Source: Microthyrium microscopicum
Lineage: Eukaryota
Assembly: GCA_010405405.1 (NCBI GenBank)
Contig: MU004242.1
Location: 97,751 to 161,750 of the forward strand
DNA: 64,000 bases
Direction of reading: 5' to 3'
Position 1 is the stretch's first letter. Every line of letters starts with the position of its first letter. Made by a program: the position numbers and the translations under genes. This document shows, piece by piece, positions 20,871 through 62,908 of this stretch. Under the pieces are notes generated by a model. It saw nothing but the letters and a program-made list of their open reading frames with translations. It did not search any database and was not told the origin of the DNA.

Positions 20871-23800
20871 TCACTCCTCGAGGAATTCGTGCTGCTCCAA
20901 CAACTCTCCATCTAGCACCTTGCCCATATGTGTTTTTTTAATGTTGTCGCCGTTGCGACGGATCTTTGTCATCAGGACGGAGAGAAATTTGACTGGACTG
21001 TTTTTGAAGGTACTAGATCCGTTCGGGATGAATCCATCAAGTTGTGTGGCGATATCTCTACCCAGTGCTCGCCACGATAATCCTAGAGTTTCGCAAACTT
21101 CGGTGTAATCCACAAAGGAGTTGAAGTACAACTGACCGGCAAAGAGGTTCAATTGAATAATGAGCTCGGGGGCCACTGGCTGATCGATCGACTTGCCAAT
21201 CGTAAAAAGATCCAGGCGGTCCAATGCAACATAATCCACGTTTGGTCGAGGTTGGTAAGTATGTAATGTTACACGGTTGTGCTTCTTGATATCTGGATAA
21301 AGCTGATCGGCTTCGAAAGGGCTGATGATCAACAGCTGGGTATAATTTTCAGCCTCATTGTAGCTGGAGAGAATCCACTGCACAGATCGAACATAGTTGT
21401 CGATGGCGCCGTCGGCAGAGATTTTGACCGTCCGAACAAAGTCAGCAGTGACAAGTATGTCTGCAGGAAATTGCCAGACATCGAAGCTTTTCGCAGCTGA
21501 TGATTTCTCCAAAGATCCAAAGGCGGAGATGAATGCAGGGGACCGCTTTCTCACCTTCCCAGACATGACGAAGGACTGAACATCGGGGTGGATGGAATGA
21601 GGTTCAGCCGGTAAAGGCTTCGGATTTTCAACTTGGCGCTCCTGTTCAATTTCAGGTGCCAATTCCCTCTCCTGTTCCTCTTCTAATGCAGCGGATGAAA
21701 AGTTGAGAACATCAAAGTCGTCGCAACGCTTGGCTATTGCTTTCATTGTCTTGTTGTTGAGATTCCAAGTTGCTGTTGACGATTGCTGACCAGGACGGTA
21801 TCTACGCTCCACAGATTGGGCTTCGTTCTGGAGGAATTGGCTCGCGATTTCTGTGGTCATGCTGAAGCCATTCTTTCTTGCTGACTTCTTCCATAGTTTG
21901 CTCTGAGAGTCAAAGACCTGGCCTTGACTTGCCCATAGAGGCATCTTGCGCCGAAGGTCTTTGAAAGTTTCTGAAATGCTCCACTGAAGAACATCAGCAA
22001 CGGTCAATTGAGCATCTGTGTCGTGGCTGAGAAGTTCGAAAATTTTCAACTTGATTTCATCTGGTATACAGAACACAAGAGATTGGCCTTTGCCGAGTTT
22101 TCTCATTCTCATACAGGCTGGACAGATTAGTAAACTGCAATGATGGCGAACACCAAGTCACTTACCTTGCACAAGAGTGTCCTTTGTCAAATCTGCACCA
22201 AGGGTCACTGCAGCGCGGTAGTCAGCAGGAAGCTTGAGATCGGTTCCCCTAGTATGAGCTTCATCAAGAAATACTAGACAAGTATCTAGCTGGTTCATAT
22301 AAGAGGACGTCTGAAGCAGCTCGAGTTTGCCATCACGATCAATGACTGATAGCTCATCATTATCATCAAAGAATATAGCAGCATGGGGTCGATTTGCGTC
22401 GTAAAGAGTCAACCATTTCTCTGCTACCTGCTGATTGTTGAGTTCGAGGATCTGCGCTCCAACGTCCAGAATAACGCGAACAGCGGGTGTCATGCTCGTG
22501 ACCATGTTCAGAAGTGACTCTGCATCCGAAGAACCGGCTTTTCGCGAGGGCATTACCGCAAGAGTATTTTCTGTTTGCAAAATATATTTTAGCACTAAAG
22601 CGTTGGTATGTCTCTGGCTCTCCAAGTCGATATGATGCACATCGAGCGGCAAAAGATGACGGGAGTCTATAGTCCCGCTGAATCCAGTCGTGATATTTGG
22701 TTTCGTGCGACCTAGATCCCAGCCAGACGCGGAAATCTTGGATGGAAACTCTCTCATGGCTTTCGGAAATACCACGCTAGACAGGAAAAAGTCGATGGCG
22801 CCTTTGGAGTATCGTAGAGCAGGAAAGACATCTTTCTTGCACTGGAGGGAATCTTTAAGATTGATACCTGAGAGTCTACTGAAGTTCTCAGCAAGGTCAG
22901 GTGCACATTGAGGATCCGTCCATTGTCTATATTCTGACGCTGCCTGATCCGACTTTTGTAGCTGGTCGAAGGACGCAAACAAATCGTCATCATGCAGTCC
23001 ACCATAGTAGAAGCAAAGACAGGTAAGTATGATAATGACATCAGTGTGGCTGAACTCCGAACGCGATCTTGGGTTATCTTTAGCTCTGAACGGAACTGCA
23101 AGTTTGCTCTGAGCTCGCTGAGGATCAAGACCATAGTTGACTCGCCATCGTTTATTGCTGAACACATGCGAGAGCACCCCTCCAGCAATAAGACCTCTAG
23201 TTAGGAGTAAGGGACCGCGAGTTGACTTGGTCCATATTTTCCCATCACTATCGTCTTCAACGAGTGTGACATCTTCCTGTGATAGATCCAGTTCTGTAAT
23301 ATAGCGAAGCACTAATTGTTTCGAAGAGTTTGACAAATGCGCGACTGGTAGCCCAGGAAGCCCGAAAGCACAAATATGGGTGGCGACTTTCTTGAAGAGC
23401 GCTGCCTGGCCTTCGGGTCGAAGGAATCGAATTCGCGGAAATCTCCCAGGCCATCGCGAGTCTACTTCAATTACGTGATGGCCCAGCTCCGCTTTGACTT
23501 CTATGGCGAATCGAGCTACCAGAGCTAGAACTCGCTGAATAATGATCCATCGATCCGGGCTAAGTTCGATCGGTTGCTGTAGTCCCATCGTATACACCAA
23601 TTCGAATTTGACGCTGAAGTTCTCGTCGCTTTCATCAATGACATCCCGAGATCTTGAATCGAACAAATGTTGAGTTTTGAGGAGTCTAGCTGCCAGATCA
23701 AGATTGCCGTTGATACTGTGCTCCACAGCCATGAGCTTGAAAGAAAGAATATGCTCCGGCTGAAGGAGCAGGATGCCGCCAGTCTTGATGCATTCAACAT

Positions 23801-26800
23801 ACATGTCGTATATTGCGTCCGCTTCGGTGCTTCCAAGTCGTAAAGATCGAGAAAATGGCATATGATAAACGCGGCGGTCAATCAAACCGCCGACCTTGGA
23901 GATGAGCATTTGAAACATCTGCTTAGACTGTGGTCGAGCAGTGATGATTCGAACAAGCTTTTTCCCATTTGCTAGCACTGCACAAACCGCAGGTACAATG
24001 CATGTAGATTTTCCTTCACCCATATTCAGCTGCATCACGGAGTTGAGCTTAGATTCTGGGCAAAGCATCTGCTGCGCAATATCGGTTTGGACGCTACGCA
24101 TCACAATTCGACTTTCGACTTCCAGGAGCAACCATTCAGGAAACTCCATTGGGTTCCAATTATTGTGTCCGACATTTGCAAGCTCATTGACTAGATCTGA
24201 ACCTCGTAGTTTAACAAGTCGTTGGGCTCGCTGGAGGGCGCACAACGCCAAGGCATATTCGACGATGCAGGGTTTCCATTCATCAGGAAGGAGCTGCCAG
24301 CGGCGATGTGACAGTTGCTGAAGAAGGAATTCAGTAGATACCCGAGGCACATGCTGCACTGCATGGCTCGTTTTACAATTTCGAACGATGGCCTCTGTCA
24401 TGGAATTCATAAGCGACTGTACCCGCGAGGTGCAGTCGACAAGATACTGTGCGAGCGACTGAGTGAGGGCTTCTTTTGTGAGAATGAGTTCATGTTGCTG
24501 GGTTTGACGATCAAGGCAAGACAGACTCTCTCGTAGTTCGTTGACGTAGCGAGTCTCGTACGCAGCCACGGCCTTAGCATCCAGCCGATCCAAGAGCACC
24601 TCAAGTTGAGCACTAGATTGCCCAACTCCGTTCTCCCTGCGCAAAAGAGATGATAGATCATCTGGCGATGTTCCATTGCAGTTGGGGGCTGCCACACTAA
24701 ACATATCACCAATGCTAATAAAGCACCGTCGTGCCAGCTCCATAGATTCGCCAGAATCCAGCTCATATTCTGTTATTTCGAAGGGTGACACTGCAGGATG
24801 ACTTGCTAGTTTCGCTTCAATCTCATCGAGGTATTCATGAAATTGGCGATTCTGAAACCACATGGTCCACTTGCGACGAATTTCTTTCATAACTGTGCCG
24901 GTATCTATGTAGTCACTGAATGTTTGTCCAGGGGGAATTCGAGGTTTCTCACAAGGCCATTGCTGCTTTAGAGACTGAGCGAAAGCGCTTGCAACTTCAC
25001 TAGTTTTCTGGTTGTAGGCTTGCAATCTTCGGTTGTTGTACTGCGAGCTGGTCTCGCCGCTTCGACGAGGGGCCGCGAACTCAGAGCTGTCCGAGGGTGA
25101 TCGAAACTTGGCGGACGCAAGCGTGAGAAGGTCGCTGGGACAATCTCCGTGGCCAAGGTGAAAACTGGGAATTTCAGGAATAGTGATTTCTGACCAATCT
25201 CCTATACAGTAGAATGCGGCAAGGCATTGAACTAACGTCATGTCTGCTCGATTCGCAAAGGCAATGGTGGAAAGCCACATCATAAGCTGAAACTGGTTTA
25301 GTGAGCGTCGAGAGGTTGCATCAAGAACAAGGATTTGATGAAGACTACACCAACTGCTGCCAACAACCGATGCGGTTTCACCTAGCAGAGCGTTCTTATA
25401 CAGCATCCATGTCGCGTGTAATGCTGTGTCTGGTCCCTGAATGATGGGGCAGCCGCGAAGCTTCCTCCAAAGCTGGCCATCAAGTTCTCTCATGGTAGTA
25501 TCAATGAGAGCATCATTCTTTTCATATAGACAGCGAGCTATGGTGAGAGATCGGTTTGCTCGTTCGGAATTCTGACCACGGTCACGGGATTGATACAACA
25601 GATCCAGTTCGGTAGTGTGCTCTTCGGCTCCGAAGCCAGATATACGGAATACTGCTGAGCGAATGAGACTACGCCGAACAAGATGTGGTTCGGTGTATTG
25701 AACAGAAGGAACATCGATACATTCGGGGTGAAATATTCTCGAAGTCTTGGCCTGAGCAAAAATCTGCTGAACCGCAGTGTAGAAGTAATCATGCTGGGCG
25801 AGGAAGCCAAGTGCAGGGTCCCAGCGAACTGACTGCATGGCATGCAAGTGTCGTGGGTAGAAAGATCGTTGTGGAGCTAATTTGGCTATTCGAACCAGGA
25901 CATCAATGTTGGCTTGATCAAGGACCTGAAAGGACCGCACCGCGGCGGACTGCAGTATAAACAGTGCTTGTTCCGTGCCAGTACGCTTGGTAAGTTGATC
26001 GCAGAGGCAGTGCGAAGTTAACGCATGCAAAAGGCAAATGTAAAGCATAGTTTGCATGTTTCCATTGTGCGTGAGGCGTCCAAGTTGTTCATCAATGCTG
26101 TAGGCATGAATCTTCATCACTGTGGCCTTGTCAACCTCCACTGAAACATGGTCGCCGTGTGGAGAATGAGAAACGGCGCCCTCAGGAACGATGACCTGCC
26201 GAGCGGTATTGCCAAGCTCGCCTTTCAGCACCAGCTTGGAGTACAGTCCAACAAGAGTACCAATTTTCTGATCGTGGTCAATATGCATTCCCCGGTATTC
26301 CAAAGACTGAAGTTGATCGGTCCCCAGTGCCAAAGAAAAGTTGAGACTGAGTCTAGGGAGGCTGATTATGAGGGATTTCGTCGTCTCGTGGAAGAGTATG
26401 TGCGTGTAAAAGTCATCCTCAAGGGGGGCGAAGATGCTTCCAATACATTTCCCGGATGGACTAGCAAGGTCAACTAGAAAGATGCGGTCTTTTTTCTTAA
26501 GCTTCCAACCACTTCCAGATTTCACCAGTCGCCAATTACCGGGATCAAACATCCAGGGTGTGGTAGAGGGGACGAATTCTACTTCTCCAGATTGATGGTT
26601 GTACCAATGAACATAATCGTTGACAAAAGCACATGGCATAAGTCCATTCAGCAGCCTCGAAGGGATGACGCTGAGCTTCTGGTCGTCCTTTAGAGCAAGA
26701 AGAAGAAGGTCGTGATCTGTTGTACTCGGGATGAGCAGCATTCTAAAATGAACCGCGTATCCTAAATAACCTGACTTGGCAGAATACTCGTATCCTGTTT

Positions 26801-29800
26801 GATTCGATGGCACTGCCTGTAAAGGCGCCTCACCAAAGAAGCGTCCGTAAGTAGGATGGCTTTCGAATTGCTTTGGGAGTCGAGAAAGAGGGGAGTTGTT
26901 GACAAGGAGCTCAGCAGTTAGGAGATTGAAATGTATGTAAAGCACATTTCCACTATCAGGATTTGTCATTGTTGTTCTGATCCAGTGTAGATGCGGTGTC
27001 TCGAGTTGGTGCCATGATCCTCTGACATAATCTACCCAGTGATCTTTTAAAGCGAAGTCCAGACAAGGATTGCCTAACTGCACAATTGCTTGCAGGAGAA
27101 GGGGAAATGCTCGGTGCATTAATTTTTTCCACTGCTCAAGTAAAGCTACGGTCAGCATGCTATAATCTCCACTCTTTGTGACCATCAACTCTTGAATAGC
27201 CATGGAGATCTTGAGAAACATAGCAGCATTTTGAGTGCGCTTCAGAACTGGAATCAAATGGATGTGTTCGAGGTTGAAGCTGACCATACAGATCAATGCG
27301 ACCTCGACAGCTTGAGATGCATACTCTGCTCGTTCTGTATTATTGGTGGAAGCCTGGACTTTAGCTCGAAGCTGGATAACCCATTCGGAAACCAAGGAGC
27401 GGCAAGATGATAAAAAAGATAAAATGTTCGATTGCTTGGAGCGCGTCAACGAGAGGAGTCGTGATGCTAGATGTATCAGCACGCCAACAACTTGGAAGAA
27501 CTCCCAATTTCTTCCCACTCGTCTCTTTGCCTCAATGAGTTGCTCCAGCAAAGCAGTGACGAAACTGTCGCGTTCAAGATCGGCATGACTGAATCTTAGC
27601 GTGTTTTGGCCAGCCGGACCGGCTTGGTGAATTACTTGCAAGAGCAAAATGGTTGTATCAACCTTGGACAGATTGAGGGAGGGCACTGCAAGTTGAGTGA
27701 GAATATTGGTCCACTGAATGTTGCAGCCAAGAGGAAGGGTGCAGAAAGCATGAAATTCATTTAGCGACATATGCCGCGGGCAATCGAATTGATTGGCGAG
27801 GACTTCATTCGGCGGCAAACCATTTGGCTCTGCCGGCGGTCTCTCAATAAACTTTTGCAGTTGCTTCGATCGGGTTGGAAGCTGAAACGAACACAACCGA
27901 TGGACTTTGTCGGTGGTCGCGAATGGAAGTATCAGCAGATGGTTCTGTATGTCATAATAACGATACTGTAAACCATTGGCGAGGCAAACAGCGCTTTCTG
28001 TTGCCGGAATAACCACCTTGGCTCTATGTGTGGCTAAGTGCGGTTTGGTTTGCGACGAGAGGCCAACTCGATAAGTCATAGAGATGAAGAACATTTTGAG
28101 ACCCGGATCATTAGAAGGCGTGTATGAAGTCGCGGAGCCATGCTTAGTTGTGTATCCATTACCGAGGACCATCGTAAGCAAAAAATGAGTCGAATCACGC
28201 CATGCTCCAAAAGAAGCTGGCACAGAGAGCTCGAAGACAGTAGCTTTAGCTTCATCACGATTCGCAGAAAGCGGCCATTCGTGAACGCGAATTCCGATCT
28301 TTGCCACGGCATTAGCACTGGTGTAGAAGGCGCATCTCTTGCAATTTGTGCTATGTGGCGATTCGTAAAGTTGCGCTACTTCATCAATGCAAACTCTGTC
28401 ATATTCACAGGTAAACGCCTGGTAACTGTTCATGTAATCGTGGTAAACTTTGTTGCATTGCGAGAGCTCTTGGCACTTTGCTTTTCGATCGTCGATTGCC
28501 TTCTTCTCAATTTTGTCGTAAAGTTTTTTGTGTCGAGGAGACTGGTCGAAATATCGTACAGCAAATGATGATCGGTGGCCGAAATCGCGAAAGATTGATG
28601 GCAGGCCCTTTCTTGACCCTGCTTCACGATCCTTAAGATAGGATTCAACTTTGGAGAGACGTTTCATCTGAGATCGAAGTGGCAGGAGAAGCGAAGAGAA
28701 AAGATTTGAGGTGATTTCTGGGTCGTACTCTGGCACGAGAGGGTAGGTACAGCATGCGGACTTGTCGCAAGCGACCCAAAGCTCCAAGGCCGTAAGGATC
28801 ATGACTGATGATGCCATGGGATTGCCTGCATAATGAGGGCAGGCAAACTTGTAGTATTGATGAAGCAGAAACTTGATGTAATTACAAGTATCATTCCCGC
28901 TCTTATGTTCCTCTATCCAGGTTTCAAGGTGTTGTTCAACCCAAGCCTCAATTGCGGCCAGGCCAAAACTGGCATCAAGACTGCCAATATCAAGTGGAAA
29001 AGTGGGCAGACCATCCGGTGAAAAACGCGGAAACTTTTCGTCCGTGGAAAACGTCGCAGTGTTTCTATTTGTAGAGACTTGGCCTAGAGTATTGAGGAAA
29101 TTATTGAAGTTTGTCAAATGATGCACGGAGTCTTGCTCGGGTCGAATTGACGTGAGTGCAGCCAGATCTGGTGCTGTAGAGCTCTGAACAGCAGTTGATT
29201 GCCACTGCGTCTCTATCGTATGGTGTGCCAGGAGCATAGTAGCTTGAACTTTCTGCAGCCATGGATCTTCATTAACAATTCCGAGTTTCGTCAGGCGCCG
29301 AGAGATCTTGGCATTCATGGAGTAGATAACGTCAGCTTCCAGGTCCAGGCCGATACAGTTTGTCAGAATTCGTGACATGAAGAAGATCATAAACGTCTTG
29401 TACAATGAGTCGTTGCCAGACAATCGACCAAATATCAGCTGAAGAACTACACGAATCAATAGCCATATAGGGGACCGGCGCCAAGGAAGATCGGCCTTAG
29501 TCCACATAACTTCATCTCGGGTATTTTTTGAGAGAGTTGAGACTGCGACAGGTTGGCCAACAGCGCGTAGGAAGCTCATCAAATGCTCCGTCACCATGTG
29601 CGGCATGGTAGAATTACGGGCTTCACTGATAGTCTGCCCTGCCTTTGACACTTGAGGTTGCATTTCATCAACAGGTTGATAGCTCATGGTAGCAATAGCT
29701 TGAGCCAACGTGTTCCGAAAATCTTGATCATAGAATGTCATATACGGTATTGTAATGGCGGCGGCGGGAAATGATCTTTTTAGCCGTCCTTGTGTCGAAA

Positions 29801-30209
29801 CTACAGACTCGTTGTCTGGAGATAGCTCGAAGATCTCAATGTTGACAAAGCTGCCCTTTCCATCGCCTGTTGGGGTGATAAGCAGGCCTGCGTTTTGCGC
29901 CTTGACAGGTACGACAACGTGTGCGGACGACAAGGATTGAAAAACGGCTTTCAACTTTGCTTCTTTGATAGCACCAGTCTTGTCGCGGGAGGCCAAAAGA
30001 TTCTTGATCATAGCCCGTCCTTTATCGATGACATCTTCGCTTGTTCTGTAGAGAGTCTTGAATTCTTGAAGAGCGTGGATGACTGCGTCTATCAGCGCCT
30101 TCTCCAAGCTTGGGTCGTCGTCGTTCTCTTGTGGCAGCTTCGGGGGGAGGAAGACATGGTGAAAGAGATACGAAGCAGCATGTGAGGATACGGCTGGCAT
30201 GTGTGCCAT
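20871..30209 (-). CDS. Giant DUF3638/DUF3645 P-loop NTPase-like protein (~3096 aa)
   Basis: N-terminal HHVFLPPKLPQ and WRRSPIWL, QLNMGEGKS (Walker A-like), DESDE (Walker B-like), LAVPFRAKDNP..RSEFSH.DV, LDEAHTRGTDLKLP, QACMRMRKLG, EEQERE. One 48-nt intron (22118-22165) joins the two ORFs in frame. Confidence 0.9.
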
Positions 30210-30258
30210 TGCGAAGCGACTGCAGCTGAACAGTAGAGAAGAGTTATGTTCAATCCAG

Positions 30259-30293
30259 CGAGAGAGAGAGAGGAAGAGAGAGAAAGAGAGAAA
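30259..30293. repeat. (GA)n-rich purine tract, i.e. a CT-rich leader of the DUF3638 gene
   Basis: gagagagagagaggaagagagagaaagagagaaa about 50-85 nt upstream of the ATG at 30209. Confidence 0.6.
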
Positions 30294-31527
30294 TGCGCAA
30301 TAGCGGCAAAAAGGCGCGATATGAACAGGTGCGCCTAAGTGGGGCAGTTTGAAATTTCCAGTGGTGCTAGCCAGTCGATTTGAGGAAGGCGCGTTGCGGA
30401 AAACTGAGTTGAGTCGGATGAGGAAGTGGCGAACCTAGAGATTCGCAAAATCGTGGAAGGAGCACCTGGTGGCCTTTAAGAGCGAGGAAGGAGCATACTG
30501 ACATTGAGCTAGTGAGCAACACCAGAAAGTAAACAATGTCTCAAATATATCTGGTATTGCTTCCTGCTAGCAGTGCAACAGCAATTATACAACACAGTTG
30601 ACATAATCATGAAGGTTGCTGTCAGACATTGAATGCTGAAAGTGGTTGCCTACGATCTGCCTAGCAGGTTGCAAACAGCCAGGTGGATTGCACTGCATTC
30701 TGAAGTGTTGATAGTACCGGATGTTTATGCAGGCTTCCAGAGACAGGAGTGCTGTTCGCCATATCGGTTGAGATGATCTTCCGTGTCCATACAATTGATC
30801 AGATCGCCCTAGGAGGGCATCGGATGACCCATCGCTACATGCGGCGTTTTCAATCATGTCAGTGAGTCTTGACCCAATATTTGGGGTCTAGTCCATGCGC
30901 TTTCTATGTCTGGTCTCTCACCAAAGGACGGCGCCATACAAGGGGACGCAGTCATTAGGCATTGTTGCCAGATTTCCACATTACGGATAGCCTCTTGACA
31001 TCCAGCACTATCAGCACGTTGCATTCGAACTGTACAACACCGGAGGAGCAAAGAAGTACGCACTGCACCTAAAGAAGAGGATTTGGCGGATTGACATAGC
31101 AAGGCTGTATTCCTAGGTGTGATATGGCGTTGTTCGTACAAGCCAAACAATTTGAGATCAAAGAGTCAGCTTAAAGAATTCTTTTCCCATCTAGTCAGCA
31201 GCAAGATGCACGAAGCAATGCTTTCGAGGAAAACAAGTTTTTATTCGTTGGAAATTCGTTGGAGACGAAGCCGTGAAGTAGGACTTTCATCTGACACTAG
31301 TCTCAATATAGTTAGATCAATGGCAACGCGACTTTTTAGCCACGCGACTTAAGCTCCACAACCAATAACGCGTTTTACAACTTCTACTCCTCCACCTTCA
31401 ATCTCCAGCCATCCAATATCTCCAAAACCGTACGCTGCCCACGGTTTATTCTTTGATATTCCCACCAACAAGATACCAGTTATCCAAACACCAATTCTTA
31501 CAATTCTTACAACAATCCTAAGCCATC

Positions 31528-33310
31528 ATGGCTGACACCGAGAAGAGTCAATGCGACATTCTCAAGTCCCAGATCAAGGACTGGGAACATAGCTTTAGAG
31601 CCACGAATGGCAACAAACCGGGCCGCAAAGACATCGGTGCTGATCCAAAAATCAGTATGTCTCTATATGTGCCCCAGGACCTCAGTCCATACTAACTGTC
31701 CACTAGAAGCACTATATGTCGAATACGAACAACTCAGAACCAAGACCAAGGCAGACCATCAATCTCGAAAGCGAAAGGCTACCGGTCACGAAAACTCGCC
31801 TGCTCCCAAGAAACACGATCAACACACCGCTGCCTTCCAAGGAACCCCTCCCAAACTCGACAATACATCCAAGCCCGAATCCTCTCGCAAGCGAAAAGCT
31901 ACTGAAGTCCTCGAGTCCTCTACACCCAAGAAATCCAGCACGCGGCACACCTTCTCAACGCCGCAAAAACAACCGCAAGACGTTGAAAACTTCCCAGAAT
32001 CACTCACACCCTGCCAATTCGAAGCCACACCCCAAAAAAATGGCATTCCCATAGGAATATTTGGTAAGACCACCGGGTGTGAAATCAAATTCCTGACAAC
32101 CTTCGCATTATGCTAAATAAGTGGTGGCTGCAATTGCGTTCGATGGCTCCCATCAGACGCGATGGCAGCTGGAACGTGTTTTATGGTTTCAGTCTTTTCG
32201 GCTTTATACTGACAGTTTGTAGATCACATCCCACCAGAACTCCTCACCGCCACACCAACGACCGCACGTATCGCCCTCGCAGCGCTGAATGGTAACATCA
32301 TTACCCGCACGCCGATCAAAAACGTCATCCCCGCCACTCCCACCACCAACCGTCGAAAGAATGAACGCACACCAATGTCCAGTGCTCGCCGCTTCATGCT
32401 AGATCAGTTTGTCACACCCGGGCATCGTAAGAAGCGTTCCGAACAAACAACTCCCAGCTCGCTGGATAAACAATTCCAAACTCCCGCGTTCCTGAAACGA
32501 TATATCGAGCCACAGGCAGTCGAGGAAGAGGATGAGACAGTTATTCGGAGATTGCCTTGGCAAAGACCGCGGTATGGACGGTCGCTGAGCAGTATGATCA
32601 AAGAGATGAGAGATAATGAGGAAGATAAAGCGGACCAGGAGTTGGATATTTTACGAGAACTGGAAGAAGAGGCAGAAAATCCTGGTCAAAAGCCAAAGCC
32701 AAAGAAAACGGTCATGTTTGAGGATATCACGCCAGTCAAGGAGACGCAAGAAGAGGAAGGTGGGCTTGATCAGGATGGATTCATTCCCTCTGCATTTGCA
32801 GATCAATTGAAACAAATTGATGATGAGGAAGCTGCTGCTGCTGAAAAATCTGGAGTACAGCGTAGAGTTTACAAGAAGAAGGGCTTAAAGCGACAAACAA
32901 AGCGAGTGAATATGCGTCCTGTCCGAACTCGAGCAGCCAAACCCGCGGAAGTGGAACCTGTGGTTGACTCGGATGGCAGTGGAGACGAATCAGATGAGGT
33001 CATCCCGGAGACTCAACTTGACGATGAGCTTTTGGATGCAAGCTTTTTGGCCGAAGCTGGCGACGACGACGCAGATTTCGAGCCCTCAAATGGAAGTCCC
33101 AAGCCTACTCCTAGCACTATACAGCCATCGCCATCGCCAAAAGTGGCAGGCAAGAAGCAGAAGAATGCCGAAAAGGAAAGTGAAAAGACTGCGACGAAAA
33201 AGGCTGCTCCGAAAAAGAAGACTGCCGACCGCAACAACTATCGAAAACTCAAGATCAAGAGCAAGAACGCAAAACCGAAAGGACGCGGTGGTCGATTTGG
33301 ACGTCGTTAA
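31528..33310 (+). CDS. SLD2: DNA replication regulator Sld2/Drc1
   Basis: N-terminal LKSQIKDWEHSF...KPGRKDI..DPKI..LY.EY, many S/T-P CDK-type sites, TPQKNG...GIFD, YKKKGLKRQTKRVNMRP, NYRKLKIK, C-terminal GRFGRR. Introns approx. 31655-31707 and 32063-32222. Confidence 0.9.
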
Positions 33311-41378: not shown

Positions 41379-41695
41379 TTTGATATCTCGTGTAGTCGTA
41401 TTAGGATGGTGGTATAAGGAGGGATTCGAGATGAGGCTATGCCTTGGGGGAAACGTAGAAGAGGCTCTTGAGTCTTTCACTTGACAAGGTGAAGCTTAGG
41501 AATTCGACGGAGTCAAAGATTTTCCATTCCGCAGGGCCAAAGCTTTTGAAGGTGACAAGGAAGATGCGCCATGCTTTTGGTGGGGCTAGATATGCAGGAG
41601 GTTTGCGCGGGAACTAACCACAAAGAGCCTAGTTTTGTTGAAGCTTAACATCATCGGAATTGGCGGTTTCTCAACACCAAAAGTTCACGAACACA

Positions 41696-42856
41696 ATGAC
41701 TGCACCTTCTATACCAAACTTGAGCTCTTTGCTTCGAGGAAGAGGTAGAGGTCGTGGTAGAGGGAGAGGAAGAGGCTCAAGCTCAGGACCACCCGGTTTC
41801 AGAGATGACGATCCAATAGCACGCGACCGCATTGTACAACATACAGATCAAGATGCGGCAGGTTCGCGACTAAGTGCTGTAAACCTACAGTACTTAGACG
41901 ATCCATACGCACAGTTTTTCTATAAAGATGCCGCTCCCCCGCGACGGTTTCCCATTATTAATAGAGGTAAGTATCGCAGAGATCAACCAATACTACCCAC
42001 TAACACATCAGGAACATATGTCCGCACTGCCGCCCTTGATCAATTAATCGCCAGATTCCTCGCCTCCGACCCTTCAACTCTCCACCAGATCATCTCCCTC
42101 GGTGCTGGCACCGATACCCGGCCCTTCCGACTCCTGACACAGACTCCACGCCCAAATCTCATCTATCACGAGCTCGACTTCGCAACCAACACCACTTGCA
42201 AAATCAGCACCATCAAAGAAACCCCGTCCCTTCTCCGTGCTCTCACCACGCACATGGACGCAGATGCTCTCGTATTCGGCTCCAATGGCGCCTCAATAGA
42301 AAGCCCAATGTACAACGTCCATCCAATTGACCTCCGCACTATCACGCCAACCACCCTCCCAAACCTTCCCAATCTCGATCCAAGCGCACCAACCCTCGTC
42401 CTTTCTGAGTGCTGTCTCTGCTATCTCTCTCCCACCGACGGCTCAGCCATCTTGACCGCATTCACATCTCATCTCCTCGCCAGCGCACCAGTTGGCCTCA
42501 TTCTCTACGAGCCCGTGCATCCCAACGATGCGTTCGGACGAACCATGGTGTCCAACCTCGCGTCAAGAGGAATACATATGCAGACATTGCAGCAATACGA
42601 GGACATCAGCGCTCAAACAGCCCGTTTGCGTGCCGCAGGACTCGGAGAAGTGGTGGGTGGAGCAGATATTGAGTTTGCGTGGGAGCGGTGGGTGGATAAT
42701 GCGGAGAAGGATCGCGTTGGAAGGTGTGAGATGCTAGATGAGATTGAGGAGTGGGTACTGTTAGCCAGACATTATTGTGTGGTGTGGGGAGGTAGGGGAG
42801 ACGTGTTCAAGAGTGCTTGGGGAAGCGTGGAGGCGCAACAGGGGTTTGAGGTATGA
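41696..42856 (+). CDS. PPM1: Leucine carboxyl methyltransferase 1 (PP2A methyltransferase)
   Basis: VQHTDQDA..SRLSAV...YL.DPY, PIINRGTYVRT (after removing the in-frame intron 41967-42011), QIISLGAGTDTR, SECCLCYL, DAFGRTMVSNL, DEIEEW.LLARHY. Confidence 0.95.
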   Translation: MTAPSIPNLSSLLRGRGRGRGRGRGRGSSSGPPGFRDDDPIARDRIVQHTDQDAAGSRLSAVNLQYLDDPYAQFFYKDAAPPRRFPIINRGKYRRDQPILPTNTSGTYVRTAALDQLIARFLASDPSTLHQIISLGAGTDTRPFRLLTQTPRPNLIYHELDFATNTTCKISTIKETPSLLRALTTHMDADALVFGSNGASIESPMYNVHPIDLRTITPTTLPNLPNLDPSAPTLVLSECCLCYLSPTDGSAILTAFTSHLLASAPVGLILYEPVHPNDAFGRTMVSNLASRGIHMQTLQQYEDISAQTARLRAAGLGEVVGGADIEFAWERWVDNAEKDRVGRCEMLDEIEEWVLLARHYCVVWGGRGDVFKSAWGSVEAQQGFEV

Positions 42857-47246: not shown

Positions 47247-48586
47247 CTACTCAAGCAAACTGGCCTGATTGGAATACAGCAAATCGACCACACTGCTCAG
47301 CTTATCAATCGTGTTGAGCGCCGCATCGAATCCTTGATCACGGCCTTGTTCTTCATACACGATCAAGCAGCCACTGCCTTGATCGAGCACACCCACAATG
47401 ACTTTGTCTAGGATCATCTGGCTCAGCTTGCGCTCCACCTGTTGCGTGTCGAGTCCAACCATCTTGGCTACATGGGCTAGCTCTACACGGGAGAATGGCT
47501 CAATGACCTTGATCAAGTTCTGTTCCAGCATGGCATCGTAGAGACGTCTGAGATGATTGGCGATGAAGCGGTCACTGCCTAGTTCGTAGCGATATGTGCC
47601 GAGCGCACGCTCATATTCTTCTAATGAGCGGTGCGTGTGAGCGTTGGCAACGGCTTTCATGGCGTCGAGACCGGTGCCGGCGTATTTGATGGCGTGTTTG
47701 GAAGCGAGGAGGTTCGTCACGTCATCGCCGAGATTGAGCATGATCTTGCAGAGCAGCATGTATTGGAAGGCACAGCTAGCTTTTGGTGCAGCATCTTGTG
47801 ATGCGTAACCTTCGAGCGCTTCGATGAAATAACTGAAGGCGGTGCCAAAGTCCTGGTCTTCGGCGTGAAGCATACCGGATTGCATGTCGAGACCAGCTTG
47901 AAGGAGAGGCGGCGTGTAGACGGATGCAGCGGAGGTTCGGGCAGATGTGAGAGCGGCGCGGCCTTTGGGGATGTTGCCGAGGGCATGATAGACGCGGGAT
48001 TCGAGGAGTTGGACCTCGACTAGGCGGAGCTTATCATCGAGACGCTTGAGCTCTTTGAGGAGGCCGTTGATGAGTGTGAGAGCTTCGTAGTATGATTGCT
48101 TAGACATATGGAGGCTGACGAGGCGGGTTTCGAGATCTTGGCGGAGGAAGCCACGGCGTGTTGAGATGGCCCATTCGATACATTGTTTGGTGGTTGTGAT
48201 TTGGATATCGGTGGTTTTGGGGATGGTGGTGAAGAGATCAAGGAGTTGTCGCACTATTTTAGAAAGTCAGCAATGCTAGCGGATGATAGTCATAGATATT
48301 ACAAACCTAGTTTGGCGGTCTTTGCCTTTGCGAGTGCTGATAGCGCATCGCGAGTCTGAAGAATCAACGTAGACAGCTCATCCGTCCTCCGTTGCTCAGC
48401 ATAAAGCTCTCCCAAGCTCACGAGAGCAACCTCAAGGTTCTTCAAAGCTGCCTCATTGGTTCCCGGTGGTTGTGTGAGGATTTCCTTGTAAACCTTCTCG
48501 GCCTTGGAGGGGTCCGACTTTTTGACCTTGTTGGCTTCTTGGAGCTTCGTAGCGTTTTCCGCAGGAGTGGCGGGAGTTGCGGCCAT
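47247..48586 (-). CDS. RPN6: 26S proteasome lid subunit Rpn6
   Basis: AKAKTAKLVRQLLD, LLKELKRLDDK, LLESRVYHAL, ALTSARTSA, DMQSG.LHAE, PCI domain LLEQNL-like ...VERKLSQMILD. Intron 48254-48306. Confidence 0.97.
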
Positions 48587-48918
48587 TGTCGAAGCTTTGC
48601 TGCTATTCTTCGTATTTGCAGAGTGATTCCAAAGGCAACAGGCTTTGTGTGATGGGATGGTGGAGGAGAGTTTTAGCTGATGGAGTGGTGATGCTTTGGA
48701 TGGTGTTGAGTTGTTGAGGGCAGTTGCAATGGAAGGCGGAAGGCAAGTGCGCGGCTGGTTCCTGCCTGATTTGATTGGTCGCACCTTCCCTGCTTCAGCC
48801 TCTTCTTCTTGGTACCTAGCAACTTCCTCTTTTGTCCCAACATCATTCTCTCTTTCTGATACTCCAACTACATCGCCATTGTCATACACCAAACTTACTC
48901 TCTCTCAAATCGCGCTTG

Positions 48919-49882: not shown

Positions 49883-51806
49883 TCAGCTTGGTCTGTTCAA
49901 CCCCCTAACCTCCACCTTCGCCTCAACCTTCCCCTTGAACCCACTCGTCCTAATAACAAGCATATCCAACCTCTCCCTCGGAAACATCGTCATAGTGCCT
50001 GCCTTCAACCCACCATTGAGGAACATTTCCAGCACACTATGATCCACCACCGCACTAATCTCCAACGCATTCACCGCATTTTCGTCTCGTGGAATGTCCG
50101 TAACACTCATCGTCTCCATCGCATCACCCAACTCCTCACCAACCAGCGCAAAACCCGCCGCACTCCGTCTATCACACGATATCGCCGGACCAGCAGCCTT
50201 CCAGCTGATGGTACACTTCACTTCCTCGCCGGATTTTGATGCGCGCCAGATGAGGGATACGTGAGAGCCAGCTTCATATGCAGCGCGATCGTCTCCAACG
50301 ATATTGAAACTCATATCCAACTGTATCGCACCACTAGCCACCTGGCTATAATTCACCGTATGCGTCCCATCTTTATCAACAACGGCACTCAACAGCTTCT
50401 CACCAACCCACTCCTCCAACCCAACCGGCGGACTCCAATAGTGAATATCGCCCGCCGTTCTAACCAACGCACCAAGACGTGGCAATGTCATCAGGCCGCG
50501 CCAGCCTTCCCTTGGACCGGACGGTGGATATGCGCAGTTGCGGAGGTTTGCTGCCCAGCCGATGGTGGTGGGGATGGTAGATGGATCTGATGAGTGTATT
50601 GAGGTTTCGGGAGTGTTGGCGAAGAATTGCGTGGCGTAGTTATCAGGGCCAAAGTCGATGATACGGTCGGCGCGCGAATCGATGGGACTGAAATGCGTAC
50701 CGTTGAAGGAGCCAGGGAAATACCGTGTTAGGGAACCGCCGTTGTAGGGTGAGCCGGAGCCGGAGGAGAGGAGGAGAATGTAGGTGCTGTTTGACTCTGG
50801 GAGCGTCGGCGCGGTTGGAGGGGACGCGGGATCGTAGGTTTCGGGGGGTGTGGGGAAGGGGTATGCGGGTGTGCTGTTGTAGAGGGGGACTTGTACGAGG
50901 TTTGGACATTCGAAGGTTGGTTCGGTGGAGGTTAGGTATGGGTTTGTGAAAACGGAGCGATAATCCCATTCGATGAGGTTGGAGGAGGTGTATATTGCGA
51001 TCTTTTGTTCGTGGGCGTATGCGACAATCATCACCCAGCGGCCCGTCTCCTTGTGCCAGAACACTTTGGGGTCGCGAAAGTTTAAGCTTGCGCCGGAGCG
51101 TCTTAGGACGGGATTTTGTGCGTATAGTTCGAATGTGTAGCCGCCGTCGAGGGAGTAGGCGAGTGCTTGTTCCTCGCTACGGCTGGCCAGATCATGCTGG
51201 GTGAAAATAGCAACTACTTTGTCGCCTATATGATCAGATGGGAAGAGGCCAGATGTGTTATTGGTGTCGAGGACTATGCTGCCAGACCACATGCCGTATT
51301 TGTGACATTTGAGGGCGATTGCATGATCAGTCCAGTTATAGAGATCGGGGGAGGTGGAGTGTGCCCAGCTCTTGCAATCGCTGGGTTCGTAGGAGGGAAG
51401 ATCTATCAAATACGTTCATGAGTTCTTGTTTCTACTTTCTTGTAGAATGGGACCTACGTTGCCAGTACATATGCCATAGTCCATTGGAGTCCTGGAACAA
51501 TCCATTGGGGTCATTGAGCCATCCTTCAGCTTTCGGCGCATAATGTATTGCAGGTCGCAGATGGCCATTCGATGTGCGCGAAGAAAAGGGACTTCGAAAG
51601 AAAACGTTGAAGAATAGAATGAGAATGAGAAACCCGGCTATAAATCTAAAAGATGTGTTGCTTATTATGGAGCTCCATGCTCTCAATCCTCGCGGTCTTC
51701 GTCGGCGCCCCTGAGCCCGTCGTTTGGCAGCGTCGAGGGGGATATCGTCTTCGTAGAACGGATCTTCCTCTTGGATGAGTTGTAATTCTTCTCCGTGGTC
51801 CTTCAT
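49883..51806 (-). CDS. Glycoside hydrolase family 32 (invertase/inulinase-like) with N-terminal membrane anchor
   Basis: LRPAIHY, WLNDPNG, WSGS, FRDPKVFW, FECP, DFGPDNYA, VDHSVLEMF. TM segment FIAGFLILILFFNVFF. Intron 51403-51457. Confidence 0.93.
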
Positions 51807-58195: not shown

Positions 58196-59631
58196 ATTTG
58201 AAGATGTTTGAGTTATGATGATAGAATCAGAGCAGATTTCGGAAAAAAAGCGTACAGGTGGATTGGGAAGACTTCAAAGGAATGATGAAAAAGCGGTAGT
58301 GTACGGGCATATTATAAAATGGAAGGTCTTCACTGTAATCGAGCAATTTGCAAGACCAGGCTGACACAAGGTTGACTCGCCTAGCTACGAAGGTTCATCG
58401 GAACTAGAAACATGGCTTATCACGCAGAACACTCGTCTATCTGTGAGTGGATGGCAATAGGTAGCTGGACGAATACAGATATCGTCGACTAAATCCGGCA
58501 GATAGAGGGTGCATTAGTTCCTGACGCTGGTTTGTTCTACGATTATAGCAAAATCACAAGGCTGAGATTTCGCCGGATCAGGTATGGTCAAAAAAGATTC
58601 ATTCAGGTCAAGGAGACCTTTTTCGGGCCGCGCGGTCGTCATGAATTGCTAATTTGAAATCAAAGGAGGTCTCTGGTGCCATGTTCATACTAGATAGAAG
58701 TGAACGGCCAATACCGTCAGAGAATAATTTGACAATGAATCCGATGAAAGGAGTACAACCCGCCCTGACACACCTGATCAGACTTAGCCACTCGGCGACA
58801 ACTCTCATAAACTGGGGCTTTGGGAAGAATAATGTCCTTCATACAAGGGTTCCTTTCCAAAGTCATGATCGACAAGATTGAAAGCATAGGGAACGGGTGG
58901 ACCCGATCACTAACCAAATTGCAAATTAGGAGTGAAAGTAGTTCGTACGATCGTTCGGCTTAGCTCTATTTGACCTCACAGAACAGGTAATTGCTTCACC
59001 AAAAGAGGAATGATCAAAGGTTTGTCAAGGGCTTATCGAATAGGCTGCTTGAAAAGCTGTTTCTTTCTACTATATGCACAACATTGAATCTACTATACTT
59101 TGGTCACATAACCCTGGCTTTCGGAGTAGGTTTTAAAACTACACCTACCATTGACAGTGTGGCTTTATCATGATCTCTTGGATGTTCAAGAAATTATCAT
59201 TTGATACAAATCAAGTACTCAATAATACAAGATATGTCTCTTCTCTATAATCTTTTCCCTTGGCCATTGCCATCCTCAAAATGCAAGTCTTGACTTTTGC
59301 TTGACTTGCTTGAAAAGCTGCATCCAAGAATCCAAGATTCATGCCCCAGAGTGCCCTACAGGTTGAATCGGTACAACATACTTTGAACTGGCTCCACAAT
59401 TGTTCAATAAAAAGAGGGCATTACTAGTGAAACCTATGTCGATGTGCAGCTTCACTCGTGAAACCCTAAACGACTTCGTTTGTGGTGGCCAAGTCGATAT
59501 CCAAGAAACCCCCGTATCGCTAACTCTAGAAATATATACCTTGAGAAAAGCTACTCGAAAAGTATAACTATCCTGGATCCCTGAATCTCCATCCCAAGAA
59601 TCATCCTCCAGTACCAAACTCTTAAACGAAC

Positions 59632-60585
59632 ATGGCCTACGACGAAAATCAAGTCCCCAAGAAGCGACGATCCCTTCGGGAGTCTGTCAAGGTCGTCCTA
59701 AAGCCCAAGAAATACCATGAAGCCAAAGAAAATCTCGAAGTCTCGCAAGGTCACCTCCGCCAAACCCGCGAGGAAGTAGTCAAATACGAAAAAGACCTCA
59801 AAAAGGCTCGCGCAGAACAACAAAATGCCAATGACGAGCTCGCACGCGCCAAGCGAGAGATCACTCAAGCTCACGAAGAGCTTGAAAACATGCATCAAGA
59901 ACTCGAAATGCTCAAGGCCGAGCTCCTGGAGACGCAGAAAGACCTCCGCAACACCAAAAAAGAAGTCATCACCCACAAGAGCAACCACGACAGCCTTTCA
60001 GAGCAACATCGCGCCGGCCAAGGCGAAATCAGACAGCTCAAGAGCAACCATGACAGCCTTTCAGAGCAACACCGTGCTGGCCAAGACGAAATTAGACAGC
60101 TCAAGAAAGACTACAGCGAATCGGAGCGAAACCACCAACAGGTGCAGCAGGATCACTACCGTACGAAAGATGAGCTCGCCCACGCGAGACAGGAGCACGC
60201 ACTGACAAGGAACCATCTCGACACCGCACAGACAGCACTCTCTGAGAAGATCATTGTGATGAAAGCGCTGCAGAAAGAGAACGATGAGATGCACACCGAG
60301 AACACCTGGCTCCGCGAAACTAATTCAACAGATATAGCCAAGATCATCAACCACCTGCATGAGCTTAACAAGAAGACAGGCATTGGAGGGTCCGATGCGG
60401 AATTTGGCGAGGCAAGGTCACATACCTCTCATGAGTCTCACCATCCGCATGTATCGCCACCGCAGCTGTCCAGAGCGCGCTCGCGTGGGTCTCGGATGTC
60501 GAGAAATTCGCAGATTTTGACTGCTGCAGCCAAGTATCCAGAGATCCATGAACATTACAGTTCGCCGCCAATGGCTATGGCGTGA
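59632..60585 (+). CDS. Coiled-coil hypothetical protein (317 aa)
   Basis: Long E/K/Q/H-rich heptad region with a disordered His/Ser tail; intronless. Confidence 0.75.
   Translation: MAYDENQVPKKRRSLRESVKVVLKPKKYHEAKENLEVSQGHLRQTREEVVKYEKDLKKARAEQQNANDELARAKREITQAHEELENMHQELEMLKAELLETQKDLRNTKKEVITHKSNHDSLSEQHRAGQGEIRQLKSNHDSLSEQHRAGQDEIRQLKKDYSESERNHQQVQQDHYRTKDELAHARQEHALTRNHLDTAQTALSEKIIVMKALQKENDEMHTENTWLRETNSTDIAKIINHLHELNKKTGIGGSDAEFGEARSHTSHESHHPHVSPPQLSRARSRGSRMSRNSQILTAAAKYPEIHEHYSSPPMAMA
59976..60105 (+). repeat. 63-bp coding tandem duplication (21 aa, three heptads)
   Basis: KSNHDSLSEQHRAGQ(G/D)EIRQL occurs twice; copies start at 59976 and 60039. Confidence 0.9.
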
Positions 60586-61233
60586 CTGTCCGACGAGTTG
60601 TTGTGGATGGGGAAGTGAAACAGAGGTGGTCATTGTCGTTGGAGTTATGATGCAAATCGAGATCTTCTGTAGAATACGATGGCAGCTAGTTTGATGTTCT
60701 GTATGTATTTTTGGTTGTTGGTACATATATTTGAAAGTACGATTCTCTTACAAAGGTTCTGTCACTTCATGATTGTCACTCTTACAACGAATCTATGAAT
60801 TCTTTCTTCTCAAAATACGTTGACATTTGATTACGAGTTGCACTCTGAAAAGGTTTAAAATGAGGTTCTCGGGTATCATGTGCTCATATATCTGACAAAT
60901 TAATCATGCTAAATAGCACTCGTCGGTAAACTGAGATGGCTGTGAACTGGGGTGTGCTTTGGGAAAGTCAAAATCTCATTTCAGGGCTGCCAGGTTACCT
61001 CCTCAGAAAATAACGCATAGAGTTGATGATGAGCTCGTTGAATCTGATAATTCGATAGGCAAGTGCCCGTTAGTTACCAGGCACGTTACCGAACATCACA
61101 ACAGAAGTGGCGGTGAAGCTGCATGATAGTACAACCTTGGAGGATATTCGTTTTTCCCTCCTCTATAATTACTACTACTGATTTATTCAGTCGATTCTGG
61201 AGTCTGGGAGCGCATTTTGCACAAATACTTATC

Positions 61234-62128
61234 ATGGTCAGTCAGGATTTCTATTGGATCTTATAGTAGTATGAACAATCGACTAATAATAGGTACCTTA
61301 ACAGCAGTCTATCGAACACGAAGAGCTCTATAACTATTTCGATGAAGATGTCTTCAACAAGACCGCCAAAAGTGTCAAAAGCTTAGGCTACACAATGTCG
61401 CAAATCATGGCACGATATGTGCGCGATACCCACAAGTCGTTGGACCAAATTCAATCCCAGATGTACGTGACAATCGCAAGGACCTCCTTTTCTTCCAGCT
61501 GTTCTTGAACGTATCTAACTAAATAGGTAGCTTGGTCGAGAATTGGGCCGTGGTTTATCAGACTGCAGTTAATTTCATCGAAAGCACAGCTCCAATTGGT
61601 GGTGACGAGATTCCCTATAGACTTAATTTGGTCAAGATCCAGGCGGAACAGGTCCATAGTATCAAAAAGTTAAACCTGAACAATAGTGGGCGCTCATATG
61701 AAGAGAACGTGGAGAGAATCAACCAAAATCTCAGAGAAGCCTATGAATACTTGGATAAGTCGGTCGTGTTTCTCACAAAGCTTTACAGTTGGCCTGCCGC
61801 CGTCCCCAACAAGACCAAGATTGTCGATATGTCTGAGCGCCGCGCCACAAAGTCTCCAGTGGCTGTCGATGTAGGAGACAGTGAATATAACGGTGATGAG
61901 TCTGCAGTCAGTGCCAGTGTCAACTCTTCCTGGAGCCCGCTGGAGAAGGAAAAGAGTGGCAATGCCCCAGGGCATCAAGGCACAAAATGTCGAAGAGAGG
62001 TCGATGGGGAAGAAGATGACCAAAGTTATAATAGTGAAGCCCTCTGCCGTCCGTTCAAGAGGCAGAAGATTGGAGGTATTGATATGAACGTACTCGACTG
62101 GATCTTAGGTGGTGAAATGAAATCATGA
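61234..62128 (+). CDS. Ypd1/HPt-like protein lacking the phospho-acceptor His (copy 1), with acidic/disordered C-tail; 5' end uncertain
   Basis: Exon ~61305/61308-61462, intron 61463-61530, exon 61531-62128 give YFDEDVF...LDQIQSQILVENWAVVYQTAVNFIESTAPIGG...LTKLY. Confidence 0.55.
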
Positions 62129-62342
62129 ACATTAACCCGCCTGGTCGCAAATAACTGAGTATTCGAGATATTATGCACATGCCAAAGTGTTTCTTTCTTT
62201 GGTAATGAATCCGAATTTTTCACAAGTGTACCGCTATAACTTACCATCTTCGTGAAGGGTGAGCATCAAGGTCATCCTTCTCTTGTCTATCCTAACTACA
62301 TCACGTATTGTTAATATTTCATATCCAAAGAGCAAGTCAAAC

Positions 62343-62908
62343 ATGGCTAGTAATGTACATCTTTCAACTGACTCACATTCTATAAGTATAAACTGACCAT
62401 TGCTCAACTTTTAGGCTTTTCCTGAGAAATTCAGCGATCTCTTCAATGAAGACGCTTTCTACGAGGCACTACGACAGAGCCGAATCATCAACGGCACTGG
62501 GCAGTCATTTATACAACGGATAGAGAAGTGTCTAGCAGATATTCAGGCAGGAATGTACGTAGCATTGCTCCCCTACATCCATCATTTCTCGTCTTGTACC
62601 TATCTATAATTCCCTGGCTCACTCTTCGCAGAATACTCAAGCGTTGGGAACAAGCTAGCCAATCCGCAGACAATCTGATCAACGAAGCGCAGGCAATTGG
62701 AGCACGATTACTGATGATAGCTGCAATAGATATCAGATTGTACGCATCTATGGCTCGTGAGGTCCAAAATGTCAAGAAACATATGGATGAACGGCTTGGA
62801 AATCTGGTTTGCATTGAAATGCAGGAAAGGGTCGAATCTGTGAGTTCAGATGCGATAGATATCTTTCAAAACTCGAGGACCGTGCTGGTAAATATGGGAT
62901 TTCTGTAG
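62343..62908 (+). CDS. Ypd1/HPt-like protein lacking the phospho-acceptor His (copy 2, 142 aa)
   Basis: Exons 62343-62354, 62415-62554, 62632-62908 give LFNEDAF...FIQRIEKCLADIQAGIILKRWEQASQSADNLINEAQAIGARLL. Same intron position and phase as copy 1. Confidence 0.6.

Follow-up and report, generated by a model that had tools for sequence, protein, structure and literature searches.

A tandem gene pair in Microthyrium microscopicum, probably derived from fungal YPD1 and lacking the phospho-accepting histidine

A 64-kb stretch of DNA from Microthyrium microscopicum, a leaf-litter fungus of the Dothideomycetes, was analysed and is referred to here as the window. Near its end lie two adjacent spliced genes on the forward strand, gene 1 (coordinates 61234–62128) and gene 2 (coordinates 62343–62908), and the question raised by this locus is whether they are descendants of a histidine phosphotransfer (HPt) gene that have lost the phospho-accepting His, and if so what they might do. 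Fungal two-component signalling is described as an hourglass, in which several hybrid histidine kinases feed a single HPt protein, Ypd1, which in turn serves two response regulators (PMC13452588, PMC11224324). It is still an open question how specificity is maintained through the single Ypd1; fludioxonil-type fungicides act on this pathway. The position of an intron, and the alignment that this intron fixes, indicate that the pair probably go back to an old tandem duplication of one copy of fungal YPD1 and may be termed YPD1-derived pseudo-HPt genes. The encoded proteins probably retain the HPt helical-bundle fold.

Both genes have database entries from M. microscopicum annotated as 'hypothetical protein', BT63DRAFT_417823 for gene 1 (P0005, 251 aa) and BT63DRAFT_417824 for gene 2 (P0006, 150 aa), and the long exons of the window genes are 100% identical to the respective entries. 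The HPt references used were the Pfam family PF01627, the structures of yeast Ypd1 (PDB 1C02, 1QSP and 1OXB) and that of the HPt protein of Chaetomium thermophilum (PDB 8PBW).

A set of fungal YPD1 genes was assembled by scanning metagenome contigs with a degenerate HPt-motif pattern, which returned 118 loci, 108 of them distinct and most of these clearly fungal YPD1. Between the N-terminal FxQILEMD motif and the His codon, 20 of the distinct loci are continuous and 53 are interrupted by one intron, the remaining 35 of the 108 being left out of the intron count as contig ends, chance matches or loci with no recognisable upstream motif. The intron is in phase 2 in all 53 resolvable loci, which belong to several sequence classes, and the split codon lies 13 residues before the phospho-accepting His in 52 of them and 16 residues before it in the other, which has a 3-residue insertion. 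In gene 1 and gene 2, a phase-2 intron splits an Ile codon exactly 13 residues before the Val and the Asp, respectively, that stand in the position of the His. This feature of the fungal YPD1 gene lineage is therefore present in both window genes, and the chance of such a coincidence was put at about 1 in 300 per register (a rough estimate, not computed). A gapless alignment of the two proteins to yeast Ypd1, whose gene is intron-less, had been made in the first-pass annotation, and that alignment thus predicts the intron of filamentous-fungal YPD1 genes to the codon and phase.

Many of the YPD1 loci also have an exon boundary 19–24 residues before the FxQILEMD motif, with the exon starting (Q)SEEGS; exon 2 of gene 1 has a possibly comparable start, QSIEHEE. 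Five of the loci recovered in the scan (L012, L028, L051, L090 and L112) matched the DNA pattern by chance, encode an unrelated frame (..HHFLKGTSARFG..) and are not HPt genes. A strict form of the HPt-motif pattern gave 0 matches in viral contigs.

The register preset by the intron was used to score both proteins, without gaps, against 42 non-redundant Ypd1 blocks over columns His-29 to His+10, the first four residues of the gene 2 product being outside every scored block. The gene 1 product scored 7.7 against -34.8 +/- 10.1 for its shuffles (z 4.2; reached by 2 of 20,000 shuffles), and the intron register ranked first among 96 registers. For the gene 2 product the score was 18.7 (z 4.8; reached by 0 of 20,000 shuffles), and the intron register ranked first among 88, though the shuffles behind both z values lack helical periodicity, a weakness that the comparison of registers and the control with real open reading frames (ORFs) answer only in part. 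In the latter control, 10,969 windows cut from the remaining long ORFs of the 64 kb included one that reached the gene 1 score and none that reached the gene 2 score, and a strongly helical neighbouring ORF attained a maximum of 0.3 in the same scoring. The result persisted when the five lost motif columns were omitted, and was also obtained in the part encoded by each exon separately. The alignment proposed in the first-pass annotation is the same as the one fixed by the intron, and is thus significant against both shuffles and real-ORF windows.

The same register was recovered by MAFFT without any intron information, with Val66 of P0005 and Asp64 of P0006 placed in the His column of an end-to-end alignment with 20 Ypd1 sequences. 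Identity of the pair to these 20 sequences is 8–17%, and the single invariant column among the 22 sequences is the Gly that closes the ...LG of the motif. The replacement of the His by Val (codon 61568–61570) and Asp (codon 62669–62671), together with the loss of the Lys and Gly of the motif, had been noted previously and is borne out: the Phe at H+1 is replaced by Asn and the Lys at H+3 by Ile in both genes, the Gly at H+4 is replaced by Glu in gene 1 and Asn in gene 2, and the Ser-Ser that follows is also replaced. The derived residues common to both copies are Trp at H-8, Gln at H-3, Ala at H-1, Asn at H+1 and Ile at H+3.

Gene 1 and gene 2 are separated by 214 bp and their products are related to one another, as had been proposed when they were described as diverged paralogues. 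P0005 and P0006 were aligned by BLASTP with 24% identity over 97 residues (E 1e-6), and the Smith-Waterman score between the two proteins was 78 against 28.9 +/- 5.0 for shuffles (z 9.9), a value reached by 0 of 2000 shuffles. The parts encoded by exon 2 alone gave z 4.35 (5 of 2000 shuffles) and those encoded by exon 3 alone z 3.6 (12 of 2000), and no alignment was obtained by BLASTP between the two exon 3 products alone. The second intron is common to both genes, being in phase 2 in the same codon, after two bases of the Ile codon, and with the same donor AT/GTACGT (the stroke marking the exon end). The first introns are both in phase 0 but lie three codons apart in the alignment, so that no correspondence between them is demonstrable. 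The two genes are distant paralogues that arose by tandem duplication, and the duplication is old because only 24–27% identity is left. The GC content of the pair is 43–45%, compared with 52–54% in the conserved genes of the window. Repeat-induced point mutation (RIP) was considered as the cause of the divergence, but no present-day signature is visible, as the RIP indices over the pair (TpA/ApT 0.67–0.84; (CpA+TpG)/(ApC+GpT) 1.10–1.53) resemble those of the rest of the window.

Both proteins, taken separately, point to ascomycete HPt clusters in the ESM Atlas. The nearest clusters by features were ascomycete PF01627 clusters for P0005 (score 0.95, 184 shared features, 28 of 30 hits) and for P0006 (score 0.94, 162 shared features, 25 of 30 hits), and Hpt clusters were also the first structural neighbours of the models made without a multiple sequence alignment (MSA), with template modelling (TM) scores of 0.56 for P0005 (residues 10–140) and 0.45 for P0006, both below the tool's naming bar. 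As shuffled proteins reach 0.95 about 1 time in 100, this neighbourhood is a lead rather than a test.

When 20 Ypd1 sequences were included in the alignment supplied to AlphaFold2, the model of P0005 had a predicted local distance difference test (pLDDT) value of 84–96 over residues 10–140, with a disordered tail (below 50 over most of residues 143–220) and helices at residues 5–11, 14–27, 31–54, 58–75, 79–99 and 103–137. In a VIA re-alignment of this MSA-based model, the top 17 rows were all HPt proteins, led by the C. thermophilum HPt protein (8pbw; Z 14.5, 127 residues, 3.1 A) and including HptB of P. aeruginosa (Z 14.1), plant HPt proteins (Z 12–13.7) and yeast Ypd1 (Z 11.6–12.3), compared with Z 10.9 for unrelated designed bundles. 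In a Foldseek comparison of the AlphaFold model, a check suggested in the first-pass annotation, HPt proteins were listed first but none at E<=0.001. The model is compatible with the HPt fold and does not prove it.

Several results weigh against the derivation from YPD1, in addition to the nature of the shuffles noted above. The confident model is circular because Ypd1 sequences were present in its alignment; AlphaFold2 run on P0005 without relatives gave an unusable model (pLDDT 36.8), and helical bundles readily give middling structure matches. No Hpt match (PF01627) was found by Pfam at E<=10 with either the exon products or the full proteins, and only sub-threshold noise was seen (Tom37_C, E 0.073; Gmx_para_CXXCG, E 0.21), although 20 of 20 metagenome Ypd1 sequences used as a control matched PF01627 (best E 3.2e-14). 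Comparison of P0005, P0006 and a two-protein profile with 20 fungal Ypd1 sequences by hhalign gave a probability of 0.1% (E 0.4–0.5), and the best local piece for P0005, residues 109–140 against the last Ypd1 helix, was collinear with the expected alignment and not significant. A custom hidden Markov model (HMM) was built from 71 Ypd1 sequences and used with hmmsearch --max against 1,004 sequences, namely the two proteins, 1,000 shuffles (500 of each) and two reversals. Neither protein did better than the shuffles, the gene 1 product standing ninth and the gene 2 product outside the top 12 of the 966 rows listed. No HPt protein was found in the PDB at E<=10, either by phmmer with P0005 and P0006 or by a search with the two-sequence profile.

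Relatives in any other organism were likewise not found in the sequence searches, which counts in particular against a role in signalling of the kind considered below. An exhaustive phmmer search of 1.84 billion representatives, made with P0005 only, returned P0005 itself and one 4066-aa repeat protein that matches the low-complexity tail (residues 131–196). Word-seeded searches made with exon 3 of each gene and with the two-protein profile (for the profile, 1028 candidates at E<=10) returned only the two proteins themselves. One little-studied species is the sole known source of the pair.

The failure of the local HMM search is explained by the invariant His-Phe-Leu-Lys-Gly-Ser-Ser columns, which carry most of the weight in the profile and are all mismatched in the pair. 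An HPt match, to be sought by profile and by structure comparison, had been named in the first-pass annotation as the evidence on which the assignment would depend, and the profile half of this comparison, by Pfam, hhalign and the custom HMM, was negative throughout. The description of the proteins as Ypd1-like without the His is therefore supported by intron position, the significance of the register and the ESM Atlas neighbours, and not by the profiles. The conserved position and phase of an intron recovered here a homology that is invisible to sequence profiles.

The gene models are as follows, all coordinates being those of the window and contig support coming from public run X1, which is RNA by guess only. 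Helices are named after their HPt equivalents.

61188–61236, forward strand: gene 1 exon 1, beginning in the 5' untranslated region at the limit of the X1 contig and ending with the start codon ATG (61234–61236); seen in the X1 contig.
61237–61304, forward strand: gene 1 intron 1, 68 nt, GT..AG, phase 0, with a NAGNAG acceptor; joint seen in the X1 contig.
61305–61462, forward strand: gene 1 exon 2, encoding the alpha-A and alpha-B equivalents of HPt; the last 2 bases belong to the split Ile codon.
61463–61530, forward strand: gene 1 intron 2, 68 nt, CAG AT/GTACGT..TAG/C, phase 2, of the YPD1 type, 13 codons before the codon equivalent to His; joint seen in the X1 contig.
61531–61792, forward strand: HPt-like part of gene 1 exon 3, encoding the alpha-C, alpha-D and alpha-E/G equivalents (P0005 residues 53–140).
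61568–61570, forward strand: GTT codon of gene 1, Val66 of P0005, aligned with the phospho-accepting His by both the intron-anchored register and MAFFT.
61793–62128, forward strand: C-terminal tail of gene 1 and stop codon, about 110 residues, predicted to be disordered and carrying a small cluster of basic residues towards its end; TGA at 62126–62128.
62343–62354, forward strand: gene 2 exon 1, with ATG at 62343–62345, encoding MASN.
62355–62414, forward strand: gene 2 intron 1, 60 nt, GT..AG, phase 0, based on the database model only, with no contig join.
62415–62554, forward strand: gene 2 exon 2, encoding the alpha-A and alpha-B equivalents; the last 2 bases belong to the split Ile codon.
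62555–62631, forward strand: gene 2 intron 2, 77 nt, GGA AT/GTACGT..CAG/A, phase 2, in the same codon as in gene 1 and YPD1.
62632–62908, forward strand: gene 2 exon 3 as modelled in the first-pass annotation, with stop codon TAG at 62906–62908.
62669–62671, forward strand: GAC codon of gene 2, Asp64 of P0006, aligned with the phospho-accepting His by both the intron-anchored register and MAFFT.

The gene positions and the GTT and GAC codons given previously proved correct on reading the DNA, and the earlier exon model of gene 1 agrees with a 748-nt contig from run X1 in which 61188–61236, 61305–61462 and 61531–62049 are joined and the two 68-nt GT..AG stretches between them are skipped. As both introns of gene 1 are missing from this contig at the exact splice sites, it is most simply read as a spliced transcript. 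At the NAGNAG acceptor of intron 1 (61300–61310), the X1 contig is spliced at 61304/61305 (protein start MQSIEH), whereas P0005 uses 61307/61308 (protein start MSIEH). The tail of gene 1 (61793–62125) is rich in Ser, Asp and Glu and is absent from Ypd1; the basic cluster near its end might, at a guess, be a nuclear-localisation signal.

For gene 2, a 164-nt X1 contig spans 62617–62777 and reaches 15 nt into intron 2, being unspliced at its 5' end. The X1 contigs therefore show no splice for this gene, and its other parts and the intergenic stretch have no contig coverage. In the database model of gene 2, another 38 nt are spliced out (62840–62877, GTGAGT...GAG), after which the model continues in another frame and ends at about 62970; no contig covers 62840–62877. 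A length of 38 nt is below that usual for fungal introns. When the C-terminus of gene 2 was compared with the last helix of gene 1, the score was reached by 524 of 2000 shuffles for the unspliced end and by 1774 of 2000 for the database end, neither being significant. The database 3' end is no more plausible than the unspliced one at 62908.

The pair is surrounded by genes of other kinds. Directly upstream is a frame of 319 codons (59626–60585, forward strand) with a weak, sub-threshold coiled-coil match (CENP-F_leu_zip, E 1.7e-4), which could serve as a synteny anchor. Further away are genes for Sld2/Drc1 (32213–33310, forward strand), a leucine carboxyl methyltransferase (41642–42856, forward strand), the proteasome subunit RPN6 (47247–48904, reverse strand, two exons) and a GH32 glycoside hydrolase (49883–51415, reverse strand), which are ordinary housekeeping or metabolic genes. 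A single frame of 2758 codons (22158–30434, reverse strand) encodes a giant fungal protein with the domains DUF6606 (E 8e-91), DUF3638 (E 3e-96) and DUF3645 (E 1e-14).

As the phospho-accepting His is replaced by Val or Asp, which is plain from the sequence, neither protein can carry a phosphoryl group at the canonical site. The derived residues shared by the two copies suggest that loss of the active site preceded the tandem duplication. The history of the pair would then have been the loss of the active site in a copy of YPD1, followed by tandem duplication and the keeping of both copies as open, spliceable genes.

If the products have a role in signalling, they would act without catalysis, as HPt look-alikes that cannot be phosphorylated and that dock on the receiver domains of hybrid histidine kinases or of Ssk1/Skn7. 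Such docking could dampen the flow through the sole genuine Ypd1, or bias it, in the manner of the plant pseudo-HPts (AHP6 and the rice PHP proteins). In yeast Ypd1, large or charged residues in place of G68 (H+4) are reported nearly to abolish phospho-acceptance and to lower binding to Sln1-R1 only modestly (PMC6341664), and a remodelled site therefore need not prevent docking. On the strength of the plant precedent and these yeast mutants, competition for docking is put forward tentatively as the most likely single mechanism. It is possible, though doubtful, that fungi, like plants, have evolved HPt decoys without His that tune the flow through the single Ypd1 bottleneck. Against such a role, nearly all of the surface residues round the former His differ from the strongly conserved face of Ypd1, and the receiver-contacting face of fungal HPt proteins is described as strongly conserved in PMC11224324.

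As nearly the whole alpha-C face has changed, a re-purposed bundle is nearly as likely as a docking competitor. The pair would then be derived from YPD1 and keep the HPt fold, but have a use unrelated to the phosphorelay, for example as small helical adaptors, with the tail of gene 1 as a new interaction module; this is possible without being probable. The surface motif on the His side (LGHFLKGSSA-LG in Ypd1) has been wholly replaced by one common to the two paralogues (Q-[ST]-A-x-N-[FL]-I...I-G), gene 1 has gained its tail of about 110 residues, and no two-component gene is present among the 14 ORFs scanned in the window. There is no direct counter-evidence, but the residues kept between the copies, of which there are two sequences only, cluster where HPt proteins contact receivers (F-x-E-D-x-F in alpha-A, and alpha-C). 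Should the bundle have been re-used, its HPt ancestry would say nothing about its present function.

It is improbable that the genes are decaying relics, that is, duplicated YPD1 copies adrift, with the open frames and transcription as leftovers or lucky gene calls. The extreme divergence with every catalytic residue gone, the failure of the sequence searches to find an orthologue, the GC content below that of the conserved neighbours and the lack of a contig with a splice for gene 2 agree with this reading. However, about 0.058 stops per random codon are expected at this GC content (a hand estimate), so that open frames of 142 and 252 codons would each be very unlikely under drift, and both copies are still present after a duplication so old that 24–27% identity is left. 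In both genes the shared intron has kept its donor, acceptor and phase, and according to the X1 contig it is used in gene 1; the bundle's hydrophobic pattern also still follows the Ypd1 register. The frames and splice signals of both copies, intact at about 10% identity to Ypd1, and the lack of any sign of RIP argue for retention by selection and not for drift.

That the pair is not of HPt origin at all, but a lineage-specific pair of helical orphans resembling Ypd1 through chance helical periodicity and one coincidental intron, agrees with the uniformly negative profile and HMM tests, the status of the language-model neighbours as leads only and the circularity of the confident model, but is unlikely, as the intron agrees in codon and phase with 52 of 53 YPD1 loci, the register that it fixes ranks first, independently, among 96 and among 88 and its scores are hardly ever reached by real ORFs, even a strongly helical one, and both proteins separately lead to ascomycete Hpt clusters.

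The derivation from YPD1 is thus preferred, and the pair can be compared with the systems known. Likeness to fungal Ypd1 is not confined to the phase-2 intron, 13 codons ahead of the His column, but extends to the size and order of the helices in the model of the gene 1 protein, which is itself informed by Ypd1; the HPt protein of C. thermophilum is described as comprising helices alpha-A through alpha-E, the His being located in alpha-C, 8 residues into the helix (PMC11224324). The pair and Ypd1 also share an N-terminal motif of acidic and hydrophobic residues, F-[DN]-E-D-x-F in the pair and ILEMDDD in Ypd1, and the hydrophobic end of the last helix, L-x-K-L-Y in the pair and L-K-K-F-Y in Ypd1. 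The pair differs from Ypd1 in that the His, H+1, H+3, H+4 and Ser-Ser positions are all replaced, neither protein is recognised by Pfam and gene 1 has a disordered tail. It also differs in number, with two tandem copies here and one Hpt said of ascomycetes; most ascomycetes are stated to have one Hpt only in a 2026 review that discusses the resulting bottleneck (PMC13452588), and the same is reported to be often the case in fungi (PMC4709007).

The yeast G68 mutants resemble the pair in having a large or charged residue at H+4, where the pair has Glu and Asn, and provide an experimental model of HPt docking without transfer. They differ from it in being single engineered changes in an otherwise native Ypd1 in which the His is present.

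The closest functional precedent may be found in plants, where pseudo-HPts remain plainly recognisable as HPt proteins and retain the other residues of the motif. Like these proteins, the pair lacks the phospho-accepting His. The whole motif is lost in the pair, which profile searches fail to recognise and which belongs to another kingdom and to a pathway of the HOG/Skn7 type instead of the cytokinin pathway. The plant pseudo-HPts, namely AHP6/APHP1 of Arabidopsis and PHP1-3 of rice, are described as HPt paralogues without the phospho-accepting His, which is Asn in dicots and Gln in monocots, and as proteins that cannot be phosphorylated in vitro, are negative regulators of the phosphorelay and have more than one origin (PMC11497342).

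The first-pass annotation knew of no described fungal example, and full-text literature searches (one of them judged by title and the start of the abstract of the papers listed) found no paper describing a fungal pseudo-HPt. Pseudo-HPts are known so far in plants, and the pair would add an independent case in fungi, with much greater divergence and with only the intron and embeddings to reveal it. If this is correct, a Ypd1 look-alike that cannot be phosphorylated would be a new player at the neck of the hourglass and a third independent origin of pseudo-HPts, after those of dicots and monocots. Fast evolution would hide such copies from Pfam and HMM searches, and more of them may sit among the orphan genes of fungi, where they could be found by the conserved YPD1 intron or by language-model embeddings.

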